Source: Bacteroidia bacterium (GTDB taxonomy: Bacteria; Bacteroidota; Bacteroidia; NS11-12g; UBA955). From it: 64,000 bases of DNA. The translations under genes and the position numbers were made by a program. Where the stretch lies: NCBI GenBank assembly GCA_044341025.1, contig JBIISM010000003.1, positions 117,105 to 181,104 of the forward strand, written 5' to 3'. Shown here piece by piece: positions 1,269 to 14,593 of this stretch; position 1 is the first letter of the stretch, and each line of letters starts with the position of its first letter. The notes beneath the pieces are model-generated. The model had not been told where the DNA came from. It made no database searches and saw nothing but the letters and a program-made list of their open reading frames with translations.

Positions 1269-2381
1269 TTATAACACTTGCTCTACCGGAGTGTATGGTA
1301 AGTTGAAAGCATCTGATACACCTTTGTATACCACTTTACCTGCAACAACGTTTAAACCAAGCAATAATTCAGCATTTTGTTTGCATGCTTCTTTCCATCC
1401 TTTGTTTGCCAATTGAATTGCATACGGAAGCGTTGCGTTGGTTAATGCAAGTGTTGATGTACAAGGAACTGCGCCTGGCATGTTGGCCACGCAATAATGA
1501 ATGATTTCATCAATTACATAAGTAGGCTCAGCATGGGTAGTTGCTTTAGTGGTTTCAAAACATCCACCTTGGTCAACTGCAACGTCTACCAATACTGCAC
1601 CTTTTTTCATCAGCTTTAACATGTCTCTAGTGATCAAGTGTGGCGCCTTAGCACCTGGAATCAAAACACCGCCAATAACCAAATCGGCCGTTTTAATTGC
1701 TTGTCTGATGTTGTAACCATTGCTATACAAAGTTTGCACATTTGCAGGCATGATGTCGTCCAATTGTCTTAATCTTGGAATAGAAATATCCATAATGGTA
1801 ACATGAGCCCCTAATCCAGCCGCCATTTTAGCCGCTTGAGTACCTACAATCCCGCCACCCAATACAAGAACATCCGCAGGTTTAACACCTGGTACGCCGC
1901 CTAAAAGAATGCCGCGGCCGCCCATTGGTTTTTCTAAATATTTAGCTCCCTCTTGAATACTCATTCTACCTGCAACCTCACTCATTGGAACCAATAAAGG
2001 CAATGAACGGTCTGCTTTTTCAACAGTTTCATAAGCCAAGCATACAGCTCCGCTTTCAATCATGGCATTGGTTAAAGGTTGGTGAGAAGCAAAGTGGAAA
2101 TAAGTAAACAACAATTGATCTTTCTTAATCAATTTGTATTCGCTTTCAATTGGTTCTTTAACTTTAACAATCATATCAGCAATTGCATATACTTCCTCGA
2201 TTGTTGACATTAACTGGGCACCTGCCTCAATGTATTCCTCATTTGTAAAAGCACTTCCCTCGCCTGCAGCACTTTGCACATACACTGTATGTCCATGTCT
2301 TACAAATTCACTAACACCTGCTGGGGTTACCGCAACACGGTTTTCGTTATTTTTAATTTCTTTTGGAACTCCTATGATCAT
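1269..2381 (-). CDS. ald: Alanine dehydrogenase
   Basis: 370 aa. N-terminus [23 protein letters not shown]... and an NAD-binding [24 protein letters not shown] Rossmann motif, both typical of the AlaDH/PNT family. Length fits Ald. Confidence 0.8.
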
Positions 2382-2533
2382 ATTCTTATATATTTTAAAA
2401 AAAGTTGTGCAAAAATAGTTAATTCCATTTGTATAGAAAAAAAATGTTTAAAATTGAGGTTTTTAAAAGGTGTTTTATTGATGGTAAATATTGCGTAACA
2501 CAACAATAAGATGCGCATATTCAAAAAAAATAT

Positions 2534-2541
2534 TACATTTG
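2534..2541 (+). promoter_or_regulatory. Candidate Bacteroidota sigma-A -7 element (TAnnTTTG) for the pntAA operon
   Basis: tacatttg lies 8 nt upstream of the pntAA ATG (2549). The same motif-to-start spacing recurs at ruvB, glnN, ftsE and the ORF at 19857. Confidence 0.3.
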
Positions 2542-2548
2542 CCGGTAA

Positions 2549-3649
2549 ATGATCATTGGAACTGTAAAAGAGACCAAAGCCTCTGAAAATCGCGTCGCTT
2601 TGAGTCCCGAAGTAGTAAAAAACCTAATTAAACAAGGATTTGAATGTTGCATCGAAGCAGGTGCAGGTGTTGCTTCAAATTTCTCAGATGCAGCCTACGA
2701 AACTGCAGGAGCAAAAATCATACAAACAGCTAAAGACGTATGCAATCAATCTAATGTTTTGGTAAAAGTAAATGCACCATCAATTGAGGAGATTGCAAAT
2801 CTTAAGGAGGGCTCTGCATTATTATCCTTTATTTACCATTTAAACAATGCAGATTTAATTTCCCAGTTAAATGCCAAGAGAGTAACTGTATTTTCAATGG
2901 ATGCTATACCGCGTATTTCACGTGCTCAAAGCATGGACGCTTTAAGTTCACAAGCAAACCTCGCAGGGTATAAAGCTGTTATACTTGGTGCTCAGCATTC
3001 TGCTAGAATATTCCCAATGCTAATGACGGCGGCAGGAACCATTACGCCTTCTAAAGTTTTAATCTTTGGCGCAGGCGTTGCTGGTTTGCAAGCCATTGGA
3101 ACAGCGAAACGTTTGGGCGCTGTGGTCGAAGTTACTGATATCAGACCTGAAACCAAAGAACAAGTTGAATCTTTAGGAGGTAAATTCATCAGTTTCGATA
3201 CGGGTGAAGTTAAGATTGAAGGTGGATACGTAAAAGAAACAAGCGAAGATACCCTAAAAAAACAAAGAGAAATATTAGGCAAACATTTAGCTGCGGCAGA
3301 TATTGCAATCACCACTGCCTTAATACCAGGCAAAAAAGCCCCAATATTAATTACTGAAGACATGGTTAAAACCATGAAATTAGGAAGTGTTATTGTTGAT
3401 ATGGCTGTAGAACAAGGTGGAAACTGCGAGATAAGTGAAGCTGGAAAAGTGGTAGTTAAACATGGGGTTAAAATTGTAGGTGAGGTTAATTTGCCTTCAC
3501 AATTGGCTCAAAATGCCAGCGAAAGCTACTCTAAAAATATCTATGCTTTCTTAACCCACTTAGCCAATAAAGATGGTTTTAAATGGGAAATGGAAGAAGA
3601 AATAACCAAAGGAACTCTGATTTGCAAAGAAGGAAACTTACTAAAATAA
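2549..3649 (+). CDS. pntA: NAD(P) transhydrogenase subunit alpha, part 1 (soluble dI domain)
   Basis: 366 aa. MIIGTVKETKASENRVALSPEVV... and VLIFGAGVAGLQAIGTAKRLGAVVEVTD. It is a paralog of the adjacent ald. Followed by a small membrane subunit and pntB. Confidence 0.85.
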   Translation: MIIGTVKETKASENRVALSPEVVKNLIKQGFECCIEAGAGVASNFSDAAYETAGAKIIQTAKDVCNQSNVLVKVNAPSIEEIANLKEGSALLSFIYHLNNADLISQLNAKRVTVFSMDAIPRISRAQSMDALSSQANLAGYKAVILGAQHSARIFPMLMTAAGTITPSKVLIFGAGVAGLQAIGTAKRLGAVVEVTDIRPETKEQVESLGGKFISFDTGEVKIEGGYVKETSEDTLKKQREILGKHLAAADIAITTALIPGKKAPILITEDMVKTMKLGSVIVDMAVEQGGNCEISEAGKVVVKHGVKIVGEVNLPSQLAQNASESYSKNIYAFLTHLANKDGFKWEMEEEITKGTLICKEGNLLK

Positions 3650-3668
3650 ACAATACGAATAATTTATA

Positions 3669-3974
3669 ATGGAAGCCATATTAACCTTTATCTCCAACAA
3701 TCAATTAATGATCTATATGGTCGTTCTTATGATTTTTGTTGGAATTGAATTGATCGAAAAAGTACCGTCTGTACTGCATACCCCATTAATGAGTGGCGCC
3801 AATGCAATCCATGGGGTTGTAATTATAGGTGCTATTATTATAATGGGACAAGCTGAAAGCATATTTGCAATTGTCCTTGGTTTTATAGCCGTTGTGCTTG
3901 GAACACTAAACGTTGTTGGTGGTTTTGTTGTTACCGATAGAATGTTGGATATGTTTAAAAAGAAAAAGAAATGA
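3669..3974 (+). CDS. pntA: NAD(P) transhydrogenase subunit alpha, part 2 (membrane dII segment)
   Basis: 101 aa, all-hydrophobic with 3 TM helices. Positioned between pntAA and pntB. Its stop overlaps the pntB start in an ATGA (3971-3974). Confidence 0.75.
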   Translation: MEAILTFISNNQLMIYMVVLMIFVGIELIEKVPSVLHTPLMSGANAIHGVVIIGAIIIMGQAESIFAIVLGFIAVVLGTLNVVGGFVVTDRMLDMFKKKKK

Positions 3975-5377
3975 AACAGTCAATTTTAGATATAATTTAC
4001 ATGATTGGTGCCGTGGGTTTCATATTCGGCATTAAAATGTTGGGCAATCCTGAAAAAGCTAAAAAAGGAAATCTTATCGCTGCCTTTGGTATGGGCTTGG
4101 CTATTTTTGGTACTATATTTTTATACGAGCACAATGGCAAACCTCTGAATAATTACGTTTGGATTTTCGGTGGTCTAATTGTTGGGACAGTTATAGGAAC
4201 AATGATGGCAAAAAAAGTCAAAATGACTGGAATGCCACAAATGGTGTCTTTCTTCAACGGCATGGGTGGTGCTTGTGCAGCTTTAATCTCCTTGGTAGAA
4301 TTTAATCATTTATCACATGAAGGAGATTTCACTCAAGCGCCTGTATTAAAATTAATCATCATTTTCCTAGGCCTTATTATCGGTTCAATATCTTTTGCCG
4401 GCAGTATGATTGCTTTTGGAAAATTAGATGAGAAGATAAAAGATAAAACCCTACCACTTCAACAAGTAATTAATGTTGGACTAATGGTGGTTTTGTTAGG
4501 AATTGCTTTCGCCGCTTCTTTCGGACTTATCTCAAACCCAATGGTTCTATATTTATTATTGGTTTTGTCATTAATTTACGGCGTGCTATTCGTGATGCCA
4601 ATAGGTGGTGCTGATATGCCAGTGGTAATCTCTTTATTAAACTCCTTCACGGGAGTAGCTGCAGCAATGGGCGGATTTTTATACGACAACAAGGTTATGT
4701 TGTTTGGCGGTATCTTAGTTGGTAGCGCTGGTACATTGTTAACGGTTGTAATGTGTAAAGCCATGAACAGATCTTTAACCAATGTTCTGATTGGTAATTT
4801 TGGTGGCGGATCTGCAGCAGCAGGAGAAGGCAAAGAAATAACAGGAAGTGTTAAAGAAATTAGCAAAACAGACGCTGCTGTTTTAATGAAATACAGCAAG
4901 AAAGTGGTTATAGTGCCTGGTTATGGATTGGCTGTAGCACAAGCTCAGCACGTTTGTCATGAACTTGAACAAGTATTAGAAGAGGAAGGTGTTGAGGTAA
5001 AATATGCCATTCACCCGGTTGCTGGTCGTATGCCTGGTCACATGAATGTATTGCTTGCAGAAAGCAATGTGAGCTACGATAAATTAATTGAAATGGACGA
5101 CATCAACCCAGAATTTAAAACAACCGATGTTGTACTAATTGTTGGTGCAAACGACGTTGTTAATCCAGCAGCTAAAAACGATCCAAGTTCTCCAATATAC
5201 GGCATGCCAATTTTAGAAGTAGAAGACGCTGCCCATACTATTGTTATGAAACGCAGTATGAAAGCTGGTTATGCAGGTATAGAAAATGAACTTTTCTACA
5301 GCAGTAAAAATAGCATGTTGTTTGGAGACGCTAAAAAGACCTTAACTGATTTGGTTACTGAACTTAAAAGTTTGTAA
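3971..5377 (+). CDS. pntB: NAD(P) transhydrogenase subunit beta
   Basis: 468 aa. N-terminal multi-TM region and a C-terminal NADP(H)-binding dIII region (...KVVIVPGYGLAVAQAQH...GANDVVNPAA...). Confidence 0.85.
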   Translation: MKQSILDIIYMIGAVGFIFGIKMLGNPEKAKKGNLIAAFGMGLAIFGTIFLYEHNGKPLNNYVWIFGGLIVGTVIGTMMAKKVKMTGMPQMVSFFNGMGGACAALISLVEFNHLSHEGDFTQAPVLKLIIIFLGLIIGSISFAGSMIAFGKLDEKIKDKTLPLQQVINVGLMVVLLGIAFAASFGLISNPMVLYLLLVLSLIYGVLFVMPIGGADMPVVISLLNSFTGVAAAMGGFLYDNKVMLFGGILVGSAGTLLTVVMCKAMNRSLTNVLIGNFGGGSAAAGEGKEITGSVKEISKTDAAVLMKYSKKVVIVPGYGLAVAQAQHVCHELEQVLEEEGVEVKYAIHPVAGRMPGHMNVLLAESNVSYDKLIEMDDINPEFKTTDVVLIVGANDVVNPAAKNDPSSPIYGMPILEVEDAAHTIVMKRSMKAGYAGIENELFYSSKNSMLFGDAKKTLTDLVTELKSL

Positions 5378-5392
5378 CATTTAAGATATTAC

Positions 5393-5428
5393 AAAAAAGG
5401 CCGATACGAAAGTATTGGCTTTTTTTTA
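5393..5428. terminator. Bidirectional rho-independent terminator serving pntB (+) and the convergent STN-repeat outer-membrane gene (-)
   Basis: aaaaaa-ggccgatac-gaaa-gtattggc-tttttttt. An 8-bp stem (one G-U pair) with a GAAA tetraloop, flanked by an A-run and a T-run. Confidence 0.75.
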
Positions 5429-5449
5429 TACAGCATGTTAAAATTCCAT

Positions 5450-7399
5450 TTATAAAAACCTAATCCCGAACTGAAATCCAGAAAACATTTTCTGTGCAAA
5501 TCTTGCTTCATGTGTCCAAAATGCATCAGCTCCAAAGTTTTTAAAATGCTTGCTGTAATTGACATCATTTTTATCATTTAAAAGATGGTTCAATGATCCA
5601 GAAGCAAATATAGACAAACCTTTGATGATTCTGTATTCTAAACCTAGATCAAGTCTGTTGTGCAAATTCAAATGGTCTGAACGAAAGTCTATAGTCATAT
5701 GCCTTGAACTTAATGCAGCATTGATGTAAAAATGCTTGCTTAATTTGATGTTTGAACCTAAACCATACCCATAGGTGATGATGGTTGCCGAATCAGAATT
5801 TAAACTTTGTGTATTGATTAACGCAATGCTGTGCAATTTCTCCATACCAGAGCGGTAAGCCAATCCGTTTTGTTTGGATTCGTTTAAACTAAATTCTATT
5901 TGATGCAGTCCATTTCTAACAAAATTAAAAATACCGAACATAAATCCATTAACCGTATCGGCAATGTTGACTATACCCAATTGCATGCCTTGCACTTTTC
6001 TCGCTATATTTAAAAACCCTGCCACTTGCATGCCTTTAATTTCATTGGCTACATTCATAAATCCAGCCGCCTGAAACAATTGCGATTTTCCGCCACTTGC
6101 ATTCATAAAACCTGCTACTTGAACCCCTTCGGTCCCTTTACTTAAATTCATAAACCCAGCAGCTTGTATGCCATGAATGCGTCTTGTTACATTCATAAAT
6201 CCTGCACCTTGTATGCCTTCCATTTCCATGGTGTTTAAATTCATAAATCCAGCCATTTGTATTCCATGCACAAATCCGTGGTTCATGTTGTAAAAACCTG
6301 CACATTGAATGCCATTCATGCTGCTTAAATTGTGGTTAAAAAACCCTCCAAATTGAGCTCCGTTGACTTCGCCTCCTACAAGGTTACCAAAACCAGAAAA
6401 CTGTGCCCCATGCATGTTTGATTTTAACACATTCAAAAAGCCTCCGAATTCTGCGCCATCCAAACTGCCATTATATCCTCCAATCAAATTAATCGACAAT
6501 TTATTTTGCACCAATCCACTTAAAATACCATTGGTTCCAATACCTGGCAACAAACTAATTTGCCAATCGCGCTGAAATGAATCGCGTATGTTTTTCTCAT
6601 TAAGCTTTTGCACTGTACCCACAAACCATTTCCCCACGCGGGTATCTTCAACTTTAATTTTCTTGCTTACATTATTGGTATCACTCCATGCAATAAGAGT
6701 TTGAGTGCTGCTGTCTGTATTTAAAGTATCTGTAATGATAGGAGAAGCCACGAATGGGCTGTCAGTTTCGGTTTGTAATTCAGAAGGAAAAACAGACTGC
6801 ATACTCATGTGCATTTCTATTAAACCGTTGTTCTGAAATTTCACATTGATCAGAGTATCTCTATAGTCTTTCTTCGTATACTTAACGTAAATGCTTGGTG
6901 ACTTACATACAACGGCCAAACGGTAGTAACCATAATCAGAGGAAACTGTACCAGAAAGCGTTTGCTTTTCATAAATACTACTGCCAACGATTCCGTCTCC
7001 ACTTTGTGAATTTCTAATATACCCAGTAATTAAATAATTGTATTTATTAGACTGGCCTGTTTTATCATCTATCTGAGTGGTTTTAGCTACTGGTTTTTTC
7101 TGTAAAATTAAATGGGTTCCTATTTGTTGGTATACAATCTCATGGTTGAATAGCTGATCTAAAACTTCTCGAACACTGCGGTTTTCAGCCATTATACTTA
7201 CTATTTTATTTCCCTTTAATACATTGCTGTTGTAGGAGAAATGAAAGTTAGCAGTTTCTTCAATAATGCCAAGTGTTCTTGACATGGTCTGCTTAATAAC
7301 CTTGATTGATATTTTTCGCTCTAATATGGCTATATTACTTTGAGCAAAAAGCCCATCGAAATGGCTAAGCAAAGTCAAGCAAATGATTAATAGTCTCAT
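5450..7399 (-). CDS. Outer-membrane protein: signal peptide, STN (secretin/TonB N-terminal) signalling domain, CarbopepD_reg-like domain, ~210-aa tandem G-x-Q-x-A-G-F-x-N repeat region, C-terminal beta-barrel ending in Phe
   Basis: The track ORF 5450..7450 starts at an upstream Met. The signal peptide (MRLLIICLTLLSHFDGLFAQS) begins at the Met at 7399, whose ATG overlaps the FecR stop as ATGA. STN-like N-terminus: NIAILERKISIKVIKQTMSRTLGIIEETANFHFSYN. Then ITGYIRNSQSGDGIVGSSIYEK...YGYYRL, then at least 10 repeats (GIQAAGFMN, GIQMAGFMN, GVQVAGFMN ...). The C-terminus alternates hydrophobic residues and ends ...GFQFGIRFL. Confidence 0.6.
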   Translation of the reverse strand: MRLLIICLTLLSHFDGLFAQSNIAILERKISIKVIKQTMSRTLGIIEETANFHFSYNSNVLKGNKIVSIMAENRSVREVLDQLFNHEIVYQQIGTHLILQKKPVAKTTQIDDKTGQSNKYNYLITGYIRNSQSGDGIVGSSIYEKQTLSGTVSSDYGYYRLAVVCKSPSIYVKYTKKDYRDTLINVKFQNNGLIEMHMSMQSVFPSELQTETDSPFVASPIITDTLNTDSSTQTLIAWSDTNNVSKKIKVEDTRVGKWFVGTVQKLNEKNIRDSFQRDWQISLLPGIGTNGILSGLVQNKLSINLIGGYNGSLDGAEFGGFLNVLKSNMHGAQFSGFGNLVGGEVNGAQFGGFFNHNLSSMNGIQCAGFYNMNHGFVHGIQMAGFMNLNTMEMEGIQGAGFMNVTRRIHGIQAAGFMNLSKGTEGVQVAGFMNASGGKSQLFQAAGFMNVANEIKGMQVAGFLNIARKVQGMQLGIVNIADTVNGFMFGIFNFVRNGLHQIEFSLNESKQNGLAYRSGMEKLHSIALINTQSLNSDSATIITYGYGLGSNIKLSKHFYINAALSSRHMTIDFRSDHLNLHNRLDLGLEYRIIKGLSIFASGSLNHLLNDKNDVNYSKHFKNFGADAFWTHEARFAQKMFSGFQFGIRFL

Positions 7400-8364
7400 G
7401 GTGTACACCCCTTTCCTTCTATTATATAACAATTTTTCTTTTGATCCCAACGCACCTCAACATTCATGGTTGCTTTGATGACTTCCAATACATTCTCCAA
7501 TTTTTCATTTTCAAAATTTGCACTCAGCTTACAGTCTTTTAATTCTTTTGCCAATACAATGGGTCTATCGCTATAATATTGATTCAAACTTTCTACAACT
7601 TCATTCAATGACTGTTCGTTAAAATGTAAGGACTTGCTCACATAAGAAAATGCGTTCTCGTCTTTTATTTCTTCCTCTTTAATAAGATGCGATTGAAACT
7701 GATAATTTACAGCTTGATTGGCCACTAAAATACGTTCTCCATCTTGGCAACTGAATTTTACCTTACCTTCTTTCACTCTAACTTGAATACTTGAAGCAGA
7801 TTTTCGCAATTCAAATTGAGTCCCGAGAACTGTTATCCTTGCTTGTCCTAGCTCAATTACAAATGGTTTAGATGCATCCTTAGCTACTTTAAAAAAGGCA
7901 GTTCCATTTTCCAATACCACGGTGCGCTGCGACTGAATAAATTCTTCTGGAAAAGAGAAATTTCCTTCTCTCAATATGACTTCAGTACCATCTCCCAATT
8001 TGTATTGAATATTTTGTTGCTTGTTGGCACTTAAATGCAGCATTGGTTCTTGTTTATACACATTGAACAAAGCAAGTGAAACACCGAGTAACAATATCAA
8101 AGATGCAGCAGCAAGCCAAACCTTGCTTAGTGGAAATACCTTTGTATTTTTTTCTTGGCTAATTTGCGCATTTACCATGCTCCAAGCTTTGTCGACATCA
8201 ATTTTCCCAAGTGGATTAATGGCTTTCGAATTGCTCCAAATGCGTTCATAATCTCGAAATATTTTTTCATTTTCCTCGGATGAATTTATCCAATTCTGTA
8301 TAAGGGCATTTTCGTGTGCCTCTGTTTCACCGGCTAGGTGCTTTACAATTAATTCTTCGTTCAT
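7396..8364 (-). CDS. FecR-family anti-sigma factor (transmembrane sensor)
   Basis: 322 aa. The N-terminal ~80 aa has the FecR pattern (ELIVKHLAGETEAHENALIQNWINSSEENEKIFRDYERIW). One TM helix (VWLAAASLILLLGVSLALFNVY). Sits directly downstream of an ECF sigma gene. Confidence 0.75.
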   Translation of the reverse strand: MNEELIVKHLAGETEAHENALIQNWINSSEENEKIFRDYERIWSNSKAINPLGKIDVDKAWSMVNAQISQEKNTKVFPLSKVWLAAASLILLLGVSLALFNVYKQEPMLHLSANKQQNIQYKLGDGTEVILREGNFSFPEEFIQSQRTVVLENGTAFFKVAKDASKPFVIELGQARITVLGTQFELRKSASSIQVRVKEGKVKFSCQDGERILVANQAVNYQFQSHLIKEEEIKDENAFSYVSKSLHFNEQSLNEVVESLNQYYSDRPIVLAKELKDCKLSANFENEKLENVLEVIKATMNVEVRWDQKKNCYIIEGKGCTP

Positions 8365-8368
8365 GTTT

Positions 8369-8932
8369 TTACTTTTTGATAAAATAAATAATAACCAGTA
8401 GTATGGTTAAAAAGTCTGACAGATTGTGTCGCATTAACTTCAATGCTTTACCCATTTGGTTTTCTACTGTCTTAATCGAAATATTCAAAACATCTGCAAT
8501 TTCTCTGTACTTTAAATCTTCGAATCTGCTCATACTAAATATCAATTTACATTGCTCTGGCAGTGTATTCAAAGCCTTTTCTATTCGTGTTTCTAGCTCT
8601 TTTAAGCTTTGATTTGACTGTATTTCGTTTTCTTGAATTTGTGACTGCTTCATGTGTAAATATTCCTCCTTAATTTTTTGATGTTTAATGGTGTTTAATG
8701 CTGAATGGTAAACCGATTTATACAGGTAAGATTTTAACGAGGTACTGATATGTATCTTCTCTCTTTTCTCCCACAATTGCACAAACACCAATTGAACAAT
8801 TTCCTCCGATTCATCTGTATCTTTTAACCACATGGAAGCATAACGACAAAGTCCTTCGTAATACTGCTTAAATACGGTTTCAAATTCAGAATGGTTCTTA
8901 AAATAATTCATTGCTTCTGTTTTCTCACACAA
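8369..8932 (-). CDS. RNA polymerase ECF-type sigma-70 factor
   Basis: 187 aa. Region-2-like segment FETVFKQYYEGLCRYASMWLKD...VQLVFVQLWEKRE and a region-4 HTH (LKYREIADVLNISIKTVENQMGKALKLMR). There is a 4-nt gap before the FecR gene. Confidence 0.8.
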   Translation of the reverse strand: MCEKTEAMNYFKNHSEFETVFKQYYEGLCRYASMWLKDTDESEEIVQLVFVQLWEKREKIHISTSLKSYLYKSVYHSALNTIKHQKIKEEYLHMKQSQIQENEIQSNQSLKELETRIEKALNTLPEQCKLIFSMSRFEDLKYREIADVLNISIKTVENQMGKALKLMRHNLSDFLTILLVIIYFIKK

Positions 8933-8940
8933 ATATATTA

Positions 8941-9156
8941 CTATTCTGTTCCATTAAGTTCAATGCGGAATACACTGTCTTCATACAATTCAACATCTGC
9001 TGAAATTGAGAGTGAAATACCCGTAAAGCTGCTGCTCGATCTTGTGTTGCTAACATTATCGCCTTCCCCTTTTATCCAATGTCTGTCTTTGCTGCAAGAA
9101 ACTGCGCTTAACATGATGATGAATAAAATGCTGAAATAAAAAATTACTTGTTTCAT
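8941..9156 (-). CDS. Small hypothetical lipoprotein, 71 aa
   Basis: Signal peptide plus lipobox (MKQVIFYFSILFIIMLSAVSCSKD). Wedged between the TonB receptor and the sigma-factor gene. No recognisable domain. Confidence 0.35.
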   Translation of the reverse strand: MKQVIFYFSILFIIMLSAVSCSKDRHWIKGEGDNVSNTRSSSSFTGISLSISADVELYEDSVFRIELNGTE

Positions 9157-9177
9157 ATATGTTTATTTATTGTTGTG

Positions 9178-11520
9178 TTAAAATTCAAGTTTGTAACTAA
9201 AAACTGGGATTAATGGGGTTTGATACCAAGTCTTAACGGCCCCATTATTAACGTCGTAATAGGTGCCTCCAATATTTTTCCTATTGCTCGCATTTTGTAT
9301 GTCTAAACTCCAAATGCTGTTGTATTTCGCATGGTTGATGCGGTAAGAAAATTTCAAATCTGTTCTAAAATAATTTGCCAGTTGTATGCTAAATGGTTTT
9401 GTTTCGTCGTACATAGTTGTTTGGTACAAACGAGACATATTCGCATCCACAGGTGTTTGTCTAAATCCACCATACCAAGTGGTTTTAATGTTGAAGCCAA
9501 ACAATTTTTTACCCCCTTTTATTTTGAATTCTTTCCCGCCTGTAAAAGTCATTGCATGTTTTCCATTGAAGCGGGTGTTATACGATTGACCAGTCATTGT
9601 TTGATACTCACTTTGATACAACGATGCTGAAAGTATGTAATACAAACCCTTGTTTAAAAAACGTTCAGCCGTTAACTCAATTCCATAATTTCTGCCCTTT
9701 CCTTTATTTACCAAAGCTTCATTTACCAAACCAAAATTCAAGTTCAAGATTGAAAAAGTGCTGTTTGCTGCAAGTCCAATTGGAATATTGAACAAGTGCT
9801 GATAATAGGCTTCTAACTTAATTCTTGTTTGACTCTTAAAAACCATTTCATATCCCGCAACAAAATGATGGGCCTTACTCAATCCAAGATTTTTATTTGG
9901 ATAGTGCTTTTCGCCATTTTCATTTTGCAACTGCGTAAAATAAACACCTGGCAATTGTAACTGACTGTGCAAACCATATCCGAAAGTCGCAGTTTGTTTG
10001 GAATTAAGCTCATAGCGCGCAGATAACCTCGGCTCTAAGGAACTTGTCTTATTTAAGCCTAAAAAGATGCCATGAGCGCCCGCAAAGACGTTCAGCTTGC
10101 TATTGAACCTCCATTTAACTTGTGAAAATGCTTGGGCATAAAAAGCTTGATCTTTGCTGTCTAAAAATGTCCTCAAGCGACCATTGCTATCCAAATCTCT
10201 TTGTTCAGTTTTAAAAGCCCAATAATTGGCAATGAATCCAGATCTTAAATGAAGCTTATTGCTAATTTTATGGTTAAGTGTGCTGCTCCAAGCCAATTTA
10301 TTATTGCCAATATTGTTTTTCCAATGGGTGTAAAAATGGGTGTAATCCTTTTCTAAATATTCCCCTTTATCGGTGATGGTATTAGAGGAATACAAGACAA
10401 CAGTTCTCAATGTATTTCTTTTATTGATGTTCAATAAATGGGTCATGCCAGATGCAATGGTGTTGCTGCCATAAAAAATATCGTAACGGTCAGATTGGAA
10501 TTTCCATAATACTGAGTCCTTTTTAGCACTTTGCAGTTGTGCACTAATTCCGGCAAAGCCAAAAAAAGCGATGTTTCCGATTCTAGATTTTGGTAAGGCA
10601 ATATTATATGCTAGGTCTTGAAACAAGGTAGAACTTTCTCCTATTTTTATGCCGAGTTGCTTGATGATTCCAAGAGTAGAATATCTGTAATTTACCAAAT
10701 AGCTTCCGCCCTTTTTACTTAAAGGCCCTTCGGTTGCCAAATCCAATCCTAAAAATCCGGCCTGTAGAGTGTATTCTCTTTTCTTACTGTTGCCTTTGCG
10801 CAAACGCAAATCGAAGACACCGCTTAAAGCATTTCCATATTCTGCAGCAAAAGCACTGCTCATAAAATCTGAATTCCCCAATAGCTGTGCACTCAATATT
10901 GAAATACCACCGCCACTGCCATTAAAACTAGAAAAATGATTTGGTCCCGGGATATCAATGCCCTCCATTCTCCACAACAGTCCAGTTGGGGAATTGCCTC
11001 TTATAACAATGGTATTATTGCCGTCATCGGCTCCAATTACACCTGCAAAGGATGTTGCCATGCGGGCTGGATCATTAACTGCTGCTGCAAATTTTTGTGT
11101 TTCTTCTACCGAAAATGTGCGCGTACTAACCGTTGCCATTTCATTCAATGGCTTTATTTTACTGGCTTTTCCACGCACAACAAAAGCAGATTTTTCTTTA
11201 ATTTGTTCTTCCAATTGAAAATTAACCACCAATTCTTTGCCACTCGTTAATAGTAAATTGGGAATACTCTGTTCGGCATAAACTTTATGTGAAGCCGTTA
11301 TTCTTATGCGACCAACAAGAACATGCTTAAATTCATAATTGCCATTTGAGTCGCTTAAAACAAAATTACTGCTATCTCCATTTAAGTATAGTTTGACTCC
11401 TTCAATGGGGCTAATTAAATTTTTATCGCTAACAGTGCCTTTTATATTTTGTGTGAAGTTTTGCGACCAGGCATCAAAACTGCTCAAAACCAAAATCAAA
11501 ATAAGTGTGTATTTCATCAT
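9178..11520 (-). CDS. TonB-dependent outer-membrane receptor (SusC/RagA-like). It has CarbopepD_reg and plug domains but no STN domain
   Basis: 780 aa. Signal peptide, then IKGTVSDKNLISPIEGVKLYLNG...GNYEFKHVLVGRIRI (CarbopepD_reg), then a plug region (TVSTRTF...IVIRGNSPTGLLWRMEGIDI), a long beta-barrel, and a C-terminal ...FSYKLEF. Confidence 0.8.
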   Translation of the reverse strand: MMKYTLILILVLSSFDAWSQNFTQNIKGTVSDKNLISPIEGVKLYLNGDSSNFVLSDSNGNYEFKHVLVGRIRITASHKVYAEQSIPNLLLTSGKELVVNFQLEEQIKEKSAFVVRGKASKIKPLNEMATVSTRTFSVEETQKFAAAVNDPARMATSFAGVIGADDGNNTIVIRGNSPTGLLWRMEGIDIPGPNHFSSFNGSGGGISILSAQLLGNSDFMSSAFAAEYGNALSGVFDLRLRKGNSKKREYTLQAGFLGLDLATEGPLSKKGGSYLVNYRYSTLGIIKQLGIKIGESSTLFQDLAYNIALPKSRIGNIAFFGFAGISAQLQSAKKDSVLWKFQSDRYDIFYGSNTIASGMTHLLNINKRNTLRTVVLYSSNTITDKGEYLEKDYTHFYTHWKNNIGNNKLAWSSTLNHKISNKLHLRSGFIANYWAFKTEQRDLDSNGRLRTFLDSKDQAFYAQAFSQVKWRFNSKLNVFAGAHGIFLGLNKTSSLEPRLSARYELNSKQTATFGYGLHSQLQLPGVYFTQLQNENGEKHYPNKNLGLSKAHHFVAGYEMVFKSQTRIKLEAYYQHLFNIPIGLAANSTFSILNLNFGLVNEALVNKGKGRNYGIELTAERFLNKGLYYILSASLYQSEYQTMTGQSYNTRFNGKHAMTFTGGKEFKIKGGKKLFGFNIKTTWYGGFRQTPVDANMSRLYQTTMYDETKPFSIQLANYFRTDLKFSYRINHAKYNSIWSLDIQNASNRKNIGGTYYDVNNGAVKTWYQTPLIPVFSYKLEF

Positions 11521-11573
11521 TACACCCTTAAGACAATCGAAATTGGTTTTACCCCTATGCCAAAATAAAAAAA

Positions 11574-13199
11574 TTATTCGCGCTCTATTCTCAACAAATA
11601 ATTCGCCTCAATAAAAGCGTATAAATCAAAGCGATTATCCAATTCAATTACAATTGGTTTATCAGAAACTACAATACCAATGACTTCACCATTGGTCAAT
11701 TTAATGTTTAATGGAAGTTTCAAATCTTTAAGATCCGACTCCAAACGTATGCTATAGCTTATGTTGCCATTGTTTAATATGCTTTGTTTAATTTCCAATT
11801 CAGGTATAGATTTTTTATATAAATACTGCTTGAAAAATAGATCCCAATTATACCTTGTTTTTTTATTAAAGAATTGAACGGTCTCTTCTGTATTAACAAT
11901 CTTATGAAAATATATCGAATTCATTTCCTTTAAACAAGCAAACCACAACGAATCATTATTTAAAATACTGCGCATGGTATGCAGCATCCATGTGCCTTTA
12001 TAATAAATATCACTATCGGTTCTGCCATGGTAAAAAACACCTCTTGGTCCTTGCATTGGATATTTAGATACAATCTTTTTTTTCTGTTCGCTAAGGTATT
12101 CAATTGCTCTTGTTTTATCTACCTGATATTCCATATACAAGGCTTCTGAATAGGTGGTAAAACTCTCGTGTATCCACATATCAGCAGCATCAGATGCCGT
12201 AATGCTGTTGCCGAACCATTCGTGACCACTCTCATGTATGATGATGAAATCAAATCCATAATTATTGTTGTTATAGTTGTTTCCATAAGCGATACAACTT
12301 TGATGTTCCATTCCCCAATAAGGTGTCTCTACCAATTTGTATGAATCGTCTTTAAATGGATATTGACCAAAGTAATACTCAAATGCCTCTAGCATGCCGT
12401 GGACCTGCAAAAAATGCTTTTCTGCTGCAGCTTGGTTATAATCTAATACATAATAGGAAAGCGGCAGTTTATTGATACCAGAAAAAGTATCTACAATGTT
12501 GACATACCGCCCAACATTGATGCTGATACTGTAGTTGTTAATTGGATTAACGACTCTCCAATGAAATGCTTTAAAAGCGCTGTCAACAATTTTTTCATCG
12601 ATTAATTTACCATTGGAAACACCCGTGAGGTCATTCGGTACAATTAATGTAATGTCTGCGCCTTCTGCCTCATCGCTCCAATGGTCTTTGCAAGGCAGCC
12701 AAGCTGATGCTCCCAAACCTTCACAGGCCAAGCCAACCCAATCGTATCCATTATTGTCTTTACGCCATACAAAGCCTCCATCCCAAGGGGCAAGTTTAGC
12801 CTCTAAAGGTTTTCCTGAAAAATAAAGCAGCAAATTATGACTTGAATTTTTGAGTAACCCCCCTGGAAAATCAAACAACACGATATTGCCTTTTCGCTTA
12901 AATGCAATTGGCTTGCCCAAATACTCAGCGCTATCAAGGTTCATAGATTTCGAATAATCCAATTGAATTTTTGATGAGGCTTCCAACATTTTAAACTCAA
13001 TGGCATTACTTCCTGAAATAAATCTTTCAATCGGTTTTATTTTTACCTCTATGTCATAATGTATAACATCAAAGCAAGAGCGCTCAAATACCAATTTGCC
13101 AATATCTTTCCTTTTTGCTTTGGCATGCAGAGACTGCACATTTACAAACGAAATGAAAAACAATAAAAATGAAAAACAATGGTTTAAGGTGCGCATCAA
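11574..13199 (-). CDS. M1-family zinc metallopeptidase (aminopeptidase N-like), secreted
   Basis: 541 aa. HExxH-(18)-E zincin signature in FIIIHESGHEWFGNSITASDAADMWIHESFTTY, a GMEH-like exopeptidase motif (YWGMEHQS), and an N-terminal signal peptide. Confidence 0.75.
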   Translation of the reverse strand: MMRTLNHCFSFLLFFISFVNVQSLHAKAKRKDIGKLVFERSCFDVIHYDIEVKIKPIERFISGSNAIEFKMLEASSKIQLDYSKSMNLDSAEYLGKPIAFKRKGNIVLFDFPGGLLKNSSHNLLLYFSGKPLEAKLAPWDGGFVWRKDNNGYDWVGLACEGLGASAWLPCKDHWSDEAEGADITLIVPNDLTGVSNGKLIDEKIVDSAFKAFHWRVVNPINNYSISINVGRYVNIVDTFSGINKLPLSYYVLDYNQAAAEKHFLQVHGMLEAFEYYFGQYPFKDDSYKLVETPYWGMEHQSCIAYGNNYNNNNYGFDFIIIHESGHEWFGNSITASDAADMWIHESFTTYSEALYMEYQVDKTRAIEYLSEQKKKIVSKYPMQGPRGVFYHGRTDSDIYYKGTWMLHTMRSILNNDSLWFACLKEMNSIYFHKIVNTEETVQFFNKKTRYNWDLFFKQYLYKKSIPELEIKQSILNNGNISYSIRLESDLKDLKLPLNIKLTNGEVIGIVVSDKPIVIELDNRFDLYAFIEANYLLRIERE

Positions 13200-13261
13200 A
13201 AATATCTTGTATTACAATAATACAACTAATGGTATAATAAAAAAATCGAGGCTTGTGTCAA

Positions 13262-14593
13262 TTAAACCAAGGTAACTATACCAATTTCAGGTCTGATACC
13301 CAATCTGCCAGGATAGCCCAAATAACCGAAGCCTCTGTTAACATAAATATATTGTTCGCCATCTTGGTACAAGCCAGCCCATTGTTTGTACATATATTTT
13401 ATTGGACTCCATTTGAACCCTGCGGTTTCTATTCCAAATTGAGCACCGTGGGTATGACCAGAAAAAGTTAAATTAATATCAGGATATTTCTTAAGAACTT
13501 GGGCTTCCCAATGGCTAGGGTCGTGAGAAAGTAAAATTTTAACCGGCATTTCTTCAGTGCCAGCATAGGCTTCAGACAAAACACCATAGCGCGCAAATCG
13601 ACCTTTGGCTCCATAATTTTCAACACCTATAAGTGCAATTTTATCTGTACCACGTTCCAATATTCTATTCTCATTCATCAACAAATCCCAACCCAATCTT
13701 TTGTGGATTTGAATTAATTGCTCCAAGTTTGCCAACTGCATTGGTGACATATGCGATTTGTTTGAATGCGCATGGTTGCCTATACCCATAATGTCGCGGT
13801 CGGGCCACTGATGGTAGTCTCCATAATCATGGTTTCCCAATATACTAAACACGCCCATTGGTGCTTTTACACGGCTGAATATTTCAATGTAACTTTCGTT
13901 CATCTCATCCGACAGACTGTTGACCAAATCGCCTGTAAAGAAAATAATATCAGGTTTTTCTTGCATCAACATTGCAACACCTCTTTCAACGGCTTTTTTA
14001 TCCCAAAAACTGCCCGAATGTATGTCGCTTAAATGCCCAATTTTCAAACCCTTAAAGCTTGCTGGTAAATTCTTTAATGAAACATCCTTTCTATGTATTT
14101 TATAATCGTGCGCACCTTTAACAATTCCATAGCCCAAACCAGAAAAGGTTAACAAGCCAATGCCTGCGCTAACTTGCGAAATAAAAGTTTTTCTTGACAC
14201 CAAATTGGCTCCACCTTTTTCCTCTGGTTTTGCAATTTGTGGCGCAAAAAGAGAAGTGAGCTTATGAAAAATCCTATACAAATCTTCCATTAACAATGGA
14301 ATAATCATGAATATTTTTGCAAAAAATAATGCGGCAAAAAATCCTGTTACAAAAACATAAATGGAACGTGGTGCATGCACCAAGATTCCTCCCATGGCCA
14401 GCAGTGCCAAAATATATAATGAAATATTAACTACCCAATAGGCAATACGTATTCCTTTTTTAAAACCAGGACTTGAATCAGTTGTCAAAGTTTTAACTGC
14501 TTGGTAGGCATAAAAATCAAAAATCAAAATAAATACCACCATGAAAAATATGCGCAGCATAATGGGGATAAGTGAGGTCACAGATTGAAACAT
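13262..14593 (-). CDS. Membrane-anchored calcineurin-like metallophosphoesterase
   Basis: 443 aa. N-terminal multi-TM region. Phosphoesterase motifs GHLSDIHSG, FFTGDLVN and ILGNHDY, then a GHTHGAQ block. Confidence 0.75.
   Translation of the reverse strand: MFQSVTSLIPIMLRIFFMVVFILIFDFYAYQAVKTLTTDSSPGFKKGIRIAYWVVNISLYILALLAMGGILVHAPRSIYVFVTGFFAALFFAKIFMIIPLLMEDLYRIFHKLTSLFAPQIAKPEEKGGANLVSRKTFISQVSAGIGLLTFSGLGYGIVKGAHDYKIHRKDVSLKNLPASFKGLKIGHLSDIHSGSFWDKKAVERGVAMLMQEKPDIIFFTGDLVNSLSDEMNESYIEIFSRVKAPMGVFSILGNHDYGDYHQWPDRDIMGIGNHAHSNKSHMSPMQLANLEQLIQIHKRLGWDLLMNENRILERGTDKIALIGVENYGAKGRFARYGVLSEAYAGTEEMPVKILLSHDPSHWEAQVLKKYPDINLTFSGHTHGAQFGIETAGFKWSPIKYMYKQWAGLYQDGEQYIYVNRGFGYLGYPGRLGIRPEIGIVTLV

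Follow-up and report, generated by a model that had tools for sequence, protein, structure and literature searches.

Organisation of the locus

We analysed a 64,000-nucleotide stretch of the genome of a Bacteroidia bacterium (assembly GCA_044341025.1, contig JBIISM010000003.1, positions 117,105 to 181,104; hereafter the window). The gene in question encodes a protein with an N-terminal STN signalling domain (hereafter the STN protein) and lies behind the genes for an extracytoplasmic function (ECF) sigma factor and a FecR-type anti-sigma factor. A TonB-dependent transporter and the remnant of a lipoprotein gene precede the sigma factor gene, and all five features are on the minus strand. The sigma factor is of the Bacteroidetes type (8369-8932; TTG start at 8932, first ATG at 8911), scores 170 bits against TIGR02985 (cut-off 126.4) and matches Sigma70_r2 and Sigma70_r4_2. 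The FecR-type protein (7396-8364, 322 residues; Pfam FecR E 2.9e-15, FecR_C E 3.5e-12) has a cytoplasmic N-terminus, a transmembrane helix at about residues 83-104 and periplasmic FecR and FecR_C domains.

The open reading frame of the STN protein spans 5450-7450, and an in-frame ATG at 7399 gives a product of 649 residues. At the junction with the FecR gene, which reads ACACC-ATGA-GACTA, this ATG (7399-7397) overlaps the FecR stop codon TGA (7398-7396). The junction and the length thus bear out an initial annotation of this DNA; the stoichiometric co-expression which it took from the ATGA overlap is an extrapolation rather than an observation. The N-terminus, MRLLIICLTLLSHFDGLFAQ, is a signal peptide that ends in LFAQ, before S (start codon and residues 1-20 at 7340-7399; helix at residues 2-17 in the predicted structure).

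Between the end of the STN gene (5450) and the convergent pntB gene (ending at 5377) lies a likely bidirectional terminator at 5390-5430, composed of an A-tract, a GC hairpin and a T-tract, with a folding energy of -11.4 kcal/mol and a modest z-score of -1.9. A sub-threshold Rfam match of this hairpin to Thr_leader (29 versus 55 bits) is most likely a hairpin artefact. The terminator and convergent pntB after the stop codon, together with the same architecture of ~600-690 residues in more than 900 homologues, indicate that the gene is no fragment or frameshifted piece of a longer TonB-dependent transporter. A SusC fragment or frameshift is ruled out by domain content, family length conservation and the terminator, and the family profile detected no second copy or fragment of the STN-protein family across the window.

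Domain architecture of the STN protein

From its N-terminus, the STN protein consists of the signal peptide, an STN domain, an NTE domain (for N-terminal extension), a variable linker of ~40 residues, capping helices, a beta-solenoid of ~14 coils (residues 275-497) and a beta-barrel (residues 498-649). The STN domain (residues ~29-102; 7094-7315) has a Pfam match at residues 52-102 (E 3e-5; 24.1 bits, gathering score 28.4) and adopts a beta-alpha-beta-beta-alpha-beta-beta pattern in the predicted structure. Among 61 STN-protein family members, for which matches were counted at E<=1e-3, 52 carry Pfam STN (best E 1.3e-11). The SusC-type NTE, an Ig-fold domain of the CarboxypepD_reg kind (residues ~120-200; 6800-7042), matches Pfam CarbopepD_reg_2 at residues 124-200 (E 2.5e-4, likewise under the gathering score) and is found in 56 of the 61. 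Sequence and profile searches of the PDB matched the NTE (9hfj, E 6.8e-6) and no other part of the STN protein. The related locus L020 encodes a canonical TonB transporter next to FecR, and residues 2-183 of the STN protein are colinear with its N-terminus by BLASTP (E 7e-10); this transporter has its NTE at residues 116-197 and a Plug domain at 225-304. Because of this colinearity, the N-terminal 200 residues are the standard Bacteroidota transducer head of signal peptide, STN and then NTE.

Beyond this head the resemblance to transporters ends. No Plug match was found in the window STN protein (E<=1) or in the 61 members, nor any TonB_dep_Rec barrel in either, and a single member had a weak match to the SusC/RagA model TIGR04056 (E 3e-4). 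The initial annotation had described a signal peptide, an STN and a CarbopepD_reg-like domain on a protein that is not a SusC-type transporter, and the Pfam matches support it on both points. Instead, the NTE is followed by a disordered linker rich in Asp, Ser and Thr (residues 201-249) and by conserved capping helices (residues 250-274, KIKVE-T--GKW...NI-D), which alignment and model place at 6578-6799. In the predicted structure, the predicted local distance difference test (pLDDT) score is below 50 at residues 207-246, and the helices span residues 254-259 and 262-270. The post-NTE linker is variable across the family; conservation in it is confined to K-I-K-V-E-E/D-T, a stretch that close relatives alone possess and that the model shows as a helix.

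The repeat solenoid

The solenoid (5909-6577) is built of ~14 coils of 15-16 residues, ten of them strict repeats of G-h-Q-h-A-G-F-x-N, with the full LA_2272-type consensus G-h-Q-h-A-G-F-x-N-h-x-x-G-x-h-x. The ten repeats that the initial annotation had quoted, at about nt 5920-6555, are all present, at residues 331-478, and its coordinates agree with those of the whole solenoid. An eleventh, GAEFGGFLN, begins at residue 315, and degenerate coils flank the array on both sides. Units start at residues 315, 331, 347, 363, 379, 395, 410, 425, 441, 456 and 471 (spacing 16, 16, 16, 16, 16, 15, 15, 16 and 15 residues), and the strict repeats are encoded at about nt 5960-6457. The pattern [QE]xxG[FIVLAY]xN occurs 10 times, compared to a mean of 0.19 and a maximum of 3 in 20,000 shuffles of the STN protein itself. 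At the DNA level, Tandem Repeats Finder detected 0 arrays in 5400-7500, and the repeat units average 52% nucleotide identity; the repeat is therefore old and conserved at the protein level, not a recent expansion. From 572 units we derived the consensus G1-h2-Q3-h4-A5-G6-F7-x8-N9-h10-[AVN]11-x12-G13-x14-h15-x16, in which Q3 reaches 90%, G6 and N9 having been imposed by the pattern used for the search. The consensus is the signature of stacked ladders in a solenoid.

While the initial annotation did not recognise the repeat as a named family, it does have a name, NCBIfam NF047436 LA_2272_repeat, albeit an uncharacterised one. The window protein scores 15.7 bits against this model (E 0.0097), under the curated cut-off of 25; 42 of the 61 family members match it (best E 2.1e-19), and 28 match VC2662_fam (NF047437), which has the same 15-16-residue repeat. 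Homologues and short paralogues score 26-40 bits on LA_2272_repeat, and the short paralogues exceed the cut-off. Membership thus holds at the family level and not from the window sequence alone. Pfam matched no family to the repeat-barrel region or to the short paralogues. Both LA_2272 and VC2662 are families in name only, and VC2662 itself has been called an uncharacterised hypothetical protein (PMC10865864). The LA_2272 name presumes surface exposure, whereas the module here is fused to STN, NTE and an 8-stranded barrel and is predicted to be periplasmic. Other short-coil beta-solenoids, MpAFP region IV (3p4g) and curli CsgA (8c50), share merely 16% sequence identity with the repeat; MpAFP has 19-residue coils, a Ca2+-binding GTGND motif is absent here, and the likeness implies no functional link. 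The repeat family takes its name from Leptospira LA_2272. According to a classification of ECF sigma factors, the FecR-linked ECF242 group of Spirochaetes is not associated with TonB-dependent receptors (PMC7826278).

The barrel and the predicted topology

The last 150 residues form exactly eight strands (barrel with stop codon at 5450-5908), each with one hydrophobic and one polar face across the family according to model and alignment. In the predicted structure these amphipathic antiparallel strands close a barrel that matches OmpA, NspA and OmpW. Unlike the 8-stranded barrels of OmpA, OmpX, OmpW and NspA, it has no Pfam family match and, in reverse of OmpA, it is C-terminal to a large periplasmic part. 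The aromatic C-terminal residue of the usual beta-signal is missing from the window protein: the chain ends in GIRFL, with Phe penultimate and Leu last, so that the annotated terminal Phe was mistaken. Across the family, the final residue is Phe in 38 of the 61 members and Leu in 16.

The strands are connected by segments of 3, 4, 8, 4, 7, 2 and 24 residues. The short ones (4, 4 and 2) lie on the side of the termini; the loops on the opposite side measure 3, 8, 7 and 24 residues, three of the four being longer than turns. As a rule, the short-turn side of an outer-membrane barrel faces the periplasm, and STN and NTE are periplasmic in every transducer known to us. The solenoid lies between these domains and the barrel and runs directly into the first of an even number of strands; because the short turns are on the side of the termini and the N-terminal STN and NTE are periplasmic, a periplasmic position is predicted for it as well. 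At ~4.8 A per coil, its ~14 coils would probably make a rigid stalk of roughly 6-7 nm pointing into the periplasm, and of the barrel loops only that of 24 residues is predicted to be appreciably surface-exposed. The model with its eight strands thus upholds the proposed combination of beta-solenoid and small barrel; the further proposal of a ligand-binding module fares worse, as a surface binding site is unlikely for a solenoid predicted to be periplasmic.

Family size and conserved gene order

Clustered at 90% identity, homologues of the full-length STN protein form at least 944 clusters, some of which NCBI names 'STN and carboxypeptidase regulatory-like domain-containing protein'. At least 554 stretches encode a relative in a collection that contains a single genome for each bacterial or archaeal species; the 80 of these loci that were listed belong to Bacteroidota or unclassified metagenome bins, with Chitinophagales, Cytophagales, Sphingobacteriales, Crocinitomicaceae, Prolixibacteraceae and Bacteroidia bins among the taxa. 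An exhaustive HMMER search with the solenoid-barrel part alone returned 5,462 clusters at 50% identity, 1,188 of them at E<=1e-30, in two length classes: ~590-750 residues, with the module C-terminal, and ~360-470 residues, with the module alone behind a signal peptide. Stand-alone paralogues of ~375-410 residues with signal peptide, solenoid and 8-stranded barrel (for example L020:8844-10049, L023:8994-10118, L029:8907-10106 and L080:8849-9973) make up about a quarter of the best 150 matches of this search. They are often encoded between the STN protein and the transporter, with their own copy of the upstream motif described below.

Gene order around the STN protein is strongly conserved. In the 65 informative loci among the 80, an ECF gene lies upstream in 65 and FecR directly adjoins the STN protein in 63, with a gap of -4 nt in 13, -1 nt in 4 and otherwise mostly less than 30 nt. 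The initial annotation had suggested checking whether orthologous loci always keep the STN gene beside FecR, and nearly all of them do. For 48 loci both flanks were available; 31 of them have a transporter homologue no further than 7 kb away, which shares the strand in 30 cases, and 13 have a short solenoid-barrel paralogue. Reciprocal sampling gave the same picture, as three of three independent transporter homologues (~50% identity, from different families) were found in clusters of ECF, FecR, STN protein, transporter and DUF2807. A DUF2807 lipoprotein gene is present in 43 of the 80 loci. The order transporter-DUF2807-ECF-FecR-STN protein, that of the window's clade, was seen in 10/48 loci; ECF-FecR-STN protein-(short paralogue)-transporter-DUF2807 in 12/48; ECF-FecR-STN protein-transporter in 5/48; ECF-FecR-STN protein only in 10/48; and other combinations in 11/48.

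A shared upstream motif

Upstream of the ECF genes, k-mer enrichment identified TAGGGGTA. It is part of a motif with the consensus CATAGGGGTAA-N11-AGTTGTC, with fixed spacing and an A/T-rich tract upstream; in its extended form, the A/T-rich tract is followed by C-A-TAGGGGTAA, 11 nt and (A)G-TTGT-C-n-T-A. Across Bacteroidota it marks where the transcription units of the module start, and it is a candidate promoter for the ECF sigma subgroup concerned. In 76 of 94 sites, TTG lies exactly 21 nt past the T of TAGGGGT, and the T following TTG is invariant, though the search did not demand it. The exact pattern TAGGGGTA-N13-TTGT gave 81 matches in 57 of 86 related loci (L001-L086), all 81 on the coding strand of the module. 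A looser pattern gave 74 sites, of which 65 lay no more than 260 nt upstream of a gene of the module (32 ECF, 23 transporter, 5 short-paralogue and 5 DUF2807 genes) and none directly upstream of a FecR or STN gene; the nine unassigned sites are mostly upstream of mis-called ECF starts or at locus ends. This placement is as expected for one sigma-dependent regulon.

In the window, the candidate ECF-sigma-dependent promoter motif, TAGGGGTAAAACCAATTTCGATTGT, occupies 11533-11557 and ends 13 nt upstream of the transporter ATG. It is the only match in the 64 kb, even with one mismatch allowed, and none precedes the ECF gene. On its own the match is not significant (at least one match in 25 of 100 shuffles); it carries weight because of its position and its conservation in relatives. 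The same arrangement is found in the close relatives L001 and L004-L017. Nothing in 5300-11800 reached the gathering score of any Rfam family, so the motif corresponds to no known RNA element. Scans for generic sigma-70 promoters and for terminators stayed at chance level, the scan tool not covering Bacteroidota promoters. Given its position, strand and conservation, the simplest reading of the motif is that of a promoter for the module's own sigma factor. The transcription unit in the window would then run from about 11557 to the hairpin at 5390-5430 and comprise the transporter, the DUF2807 remnant, the sigma factor, FecR and the STN protein. A separate ECF-FecR-transporter set in L020 (site at ~4002, minus strand) has the CATAGGGGTAA half with a different downstream half, which would fit a common -35 element with a discriminating -10 element.

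The associated transporter and the neighbouring genes

The first gene of the predicted operon (9178-11520) encodes an STN-less TonB-dependent transporter of 780 residues with a signal peptide, a CarboxypepD_reg/NTE domain (residues 26-115), a TonB-box-like SAFVVRG, a plug and a barrel of ~22 strands. Pfam detected CarboxypepD_reg (E 2e-11), a weak Plug match and no STN domain; its homologues match Plug and TonB_dep_Rec and are named TonB-dependent receptor. The AlphaFold2 model has a pLDDT of 71, with values below 50 in the plug (residues ~109-240), so that only the barrel and the overall fold assignment were used; Foldseek matched it to FptA, BauA, FhuA, FpvA and a B. theta B12 transporter with E ~1e-17. 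The poorly modelled plug region is the most conserved part of the transporter. Across families, the transporter is ~49-50% identical, compared to ~30-35% for the STN protein, and this greater conservation suggests a conserved substrate. The system therefore includes a transporter: the earlier description of a sensor that is not itself a transporter is right for the STN protein and falls short for the system as a whole.

Between the transporter and sigma factor genes, 8941-9156 holds a 71-residue remnant of a DUF2807/'Toastrack' beta-helix lipoprotein, a lipoprotein-like open reading frame with the translation MKQVIFYFSILFIIMLSAVSC followed by SKD. In L001 and L004-L017 the same slot contains an intact gene of 240-245 codons. 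The L001 copy matches Pfam DUF2807 (E 7.5e-42), and the L001 STN protein is 91% identical to that of the window. In the alignment, the window is without ~545 bp of the gene, and both ends of the deletion lie in short direct repeats, AACA[A/G]AA. Since relatives keep the gene intact and the window is without these ~545 bp, one conserved module member has been lost in the source genome. The flanks of the module (1269-5377 and 11574-14593) encode an alanine dehydrogenase, the pntA/pntB transhydrogenase, an M1-family peptidase and a membrane metallophosphoesterase. Because the relative L083 has the same flanking genes, the module occupies a conserved part of the chromosome rather than an obvious mobile element.

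Discussion

In the current view, FecR-type cell-surface signalling belongs to TonB-dependent transporters with an STN domain of their own, and this transducer logic controls many nutrient-uptake loci in Bacteroidota. The module described here shares much with FecA/FecR/FecI, FpvA/FpvR and the STN-bearing SusC-like transducers: an ECF sigma factor, FecR and an outer-membrane protein with an N-terminal STN, encoded after FecR and with the STN-then-NTE order, in a system that contains a transporter. Unlike in these canonical transducers, the STN domain is off the transporter, which retains an NTE and has lost its STN. The STN carrier, in turn, has no recognised TonB box, no plug and no 22-stranded barrel, but a solenoid and an 8-stranded barrel instead.

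The closest functional precedent is found in the PUMA3 system of Pseudomonas aeruginosa (VreA-VreI-VreR). Its STN protein VreA is without a transporter barrel, is encoded with an ECF sigma factor and a FecR-type regulator, and has been proposed to connect this regulator to an unknown receptor in the outer membrane (PMC2729926). VreA is a mostly soluble, periplasmic protein of ~23 kDa with a TolA/TonB-like C-terminal domain (PMC2729926). The STN protein likewise has an STN without a transporter barrel in an ECF/FecR-type operon; unlike VreA, it is predicted to be anchored in the outer membrane by its own barrel, carries an NTE and a solenoid, and has no TonB_C-type match in Pfam. Because the architecture beyond the STN differs, VreA is an analogue and not a family member.

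We favour, at somewhat less than even confidence, the interpretation that the STN protein is the signalling subunit of a split cell-surface-signalling system. It builds on the domain content of the family (STN in 52/61 and NTE in 56/61 members, Plug or TonB barrel in 0/61) and on its gene neighbourhood (ECF in 65/65 and FecR in 63/65 loci, a transporter nearby in 31/48 and 3/3 in the reciprocal sample), as well as on the shared upstream motif and the VreA precedent. In such a system, the 8-stranded barrel would anchor the STN protein in the outer membrane, with the solenoid projecting into the periplasm; past the solenoid would follow the flexible linker of ~40 residues and then NTE and STN, in the order known from canonical Bacteroidota FecR-linked transporters. 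The ligand receptor would be the STN-less transporter, in most relatives probably together with the DUF2807 lipoprotein. Substrate loading or TonB action at the transporter would be relayed through the STN protein to FecR, by an inferred contact between STN and FecR. The ECF sigma factor, once freed, would recognise the CATAGGGGTAA-N11-AGTTGTC promoters and start transcription, and in the window this promoter would drive the whole unit: transporter, DUF2807 remnant, sigma factor, FecR and STN protein. The SusC NTE is essential, its function is unknown and it possibly confers TonB specificity (PMC7782687). As an NTE is kept on both the STN protein and the transporter, a common TonB/NTE contact is a conceivable, though speculative, coupling route.

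Several observations weigh against a split transducer. In the window protein itself, the STN and NTE scores stay under the Pfam gathering thresholds, and the family alignment offers no convincing candidate for a TonB box in the linker after the NTE. A transporter homologue is missing within 7 kb in 17 of the 48 loci, and ten of the 48 consist of ECF, FecR and STN protein only, so that this three-gene core may work without an STN-less transporter. The DUF2807 deletion may mean that the module is partly decayed or that DUF2807 is dispensable, and conservation and position are the whole basis of the putative promoter assignment. Moreover, DUF2807/'Toastrack' domains are otherwise tied to envelope-stress signalling, in systems such as Lia, Vra and PspC, of which such partners are typical.

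The last point favours what we regard as the strongest, if unlikely, rival: the STN protein would be an autonomous envelope sensor or spacer whose solenoid reports the state of the envelope, for example outer-membrane assembly, the distance between outer membrane and peptidoglycan, or a periplasmic polymer bound on the Gln/Asn ladders. The STN would pass this state to FecR, and transporter, DUF2807 protein and short paralogue would be outputs. The invariant core of ECF, FecR and STN protein and the loci without a nearby transporter fit such a sensor. So does the solenoid-barrel module on its own, in proteins of ~360-470 residues, which points to a function independent of STN, and the near-invariant Q3, N9 and G6 over 572 units suggest a conserved periodic surface or core. 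The sensor is harder to reconcile with a transporter subfamily that is tied to the module in all three samples and carries the same upstream motif; elsewhere, moreover, what STN domains are known to relay is the state of a transporter.

Less probable still is that the protein senses nothing and acts as a co-expressed brake or anchor for FecR, its STN holding the periplasmic domain of FecR in an inhibited or protected state at the outer membrane; being sigma-dependent and overlapping FecR, the gene would reset the system after induction. Such a role would suit the overlaps with FecR (ATGA or 1 nt) that the window's clade shows, the tight adjacency elsewhere, the position of the gene inside the predicted autoregulated unit and the small extracellular loops of 3, 8, 7 and 24 residues. 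By sequence alone it is indistinguishable from a split transducer, and it leaves the conserved solenoid of ~14 coils and the kept NTE unexplained.

We consider it very improbable that the solenoid is exposed on the cell surface, where it would bind ligands or act as an adhesin and the barrel would display it as an autotransporter does its passenger; the ligand-binding module of the initial annotation comes closest to this reading. An N-terminal beta-helix before a C-terminal barrel is superficially similar to type V autotransporters, and the NCBI name of the repeat contains 'surface'. However, the barrel resembles OmpA, NspA and OmpW and has 8 strands in ~150 residues, not the 12 of a type V translocator, and no pore-spanning helix connects it to the solenoid. 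An autotransporter is ruled out by the size of the barrel. Furthermore, STN and NTE, necessarily periplasmic, precede the solenoid on the same chain, and the loop and turn lengths put the N-terminus of the barrel in the periplasm. Finally, the idea that the gene is an annotation artefact, or that its product is a SusC/TonB transporter which has degenerated or been truncated and has low-complexity loops, is effectively refuted, because the one weak TIGR04056 match probably stems from the common N-terminal module and stands against the absence of Plug and TonB barrel in 61/61 members, full-length conservation in at least 944 clusters and 554 genome stretches, the confidently modelled 8-stranded barrel, the terminator and convergent gene right after the stop codon and the lack of any other family-profile fragment in the window.

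Taken singly, the components of this module are familiar, among them STN and NTE, the LA_2272 repeat, small outer-membrane barrels and ECF/FecR signalling. Our search of a literature library found no paper that describes their combination, the split between STN and transporter, a solenoid stalk of the kind predicted here for the periplasm or the conserved motif that resembles a promoter, and no functional study of the STN-NTE-solenoid-barrel architecture. A broader proposal, possible but doubtful, is that the family represents a new kind of widespread trans-envelope device of Bacteroidota, in which an 8-stranded anchor and a rigid periplasmic solenoid stalk present STN to FecR. It could serve an STN-less TonB-dependent transporter as a detachable signalling subunit, or it could measure the periplasm like a ruler or sense its integrity. 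It would have its own conserved sigma-specific CATAGGGGTAA-N11-AGTTGTC promoter, and its regulon would be a defined one, made up of the transporter, the Toastrack lipoprotein and the solenoid paralogue. If such a device is real, the solenoid-barrel proteins that stand alone would form a class of their own, new among outer-membrane proteins and marked by a periplasmic stalk.

The family occurs in cultured genera, namely Terrimonas, Niastella, Chitinophaga, Pinibacter, Larkinella and Spirosoma, which makes experiments feasible. Should the split transducer prove true, signal relay and transport would be physically separable, the roles of the NTE and the LA_2272 repeat would become testable, and the module would provide a compact, portable set of sigma factor, anti-sigma factor and promoter.

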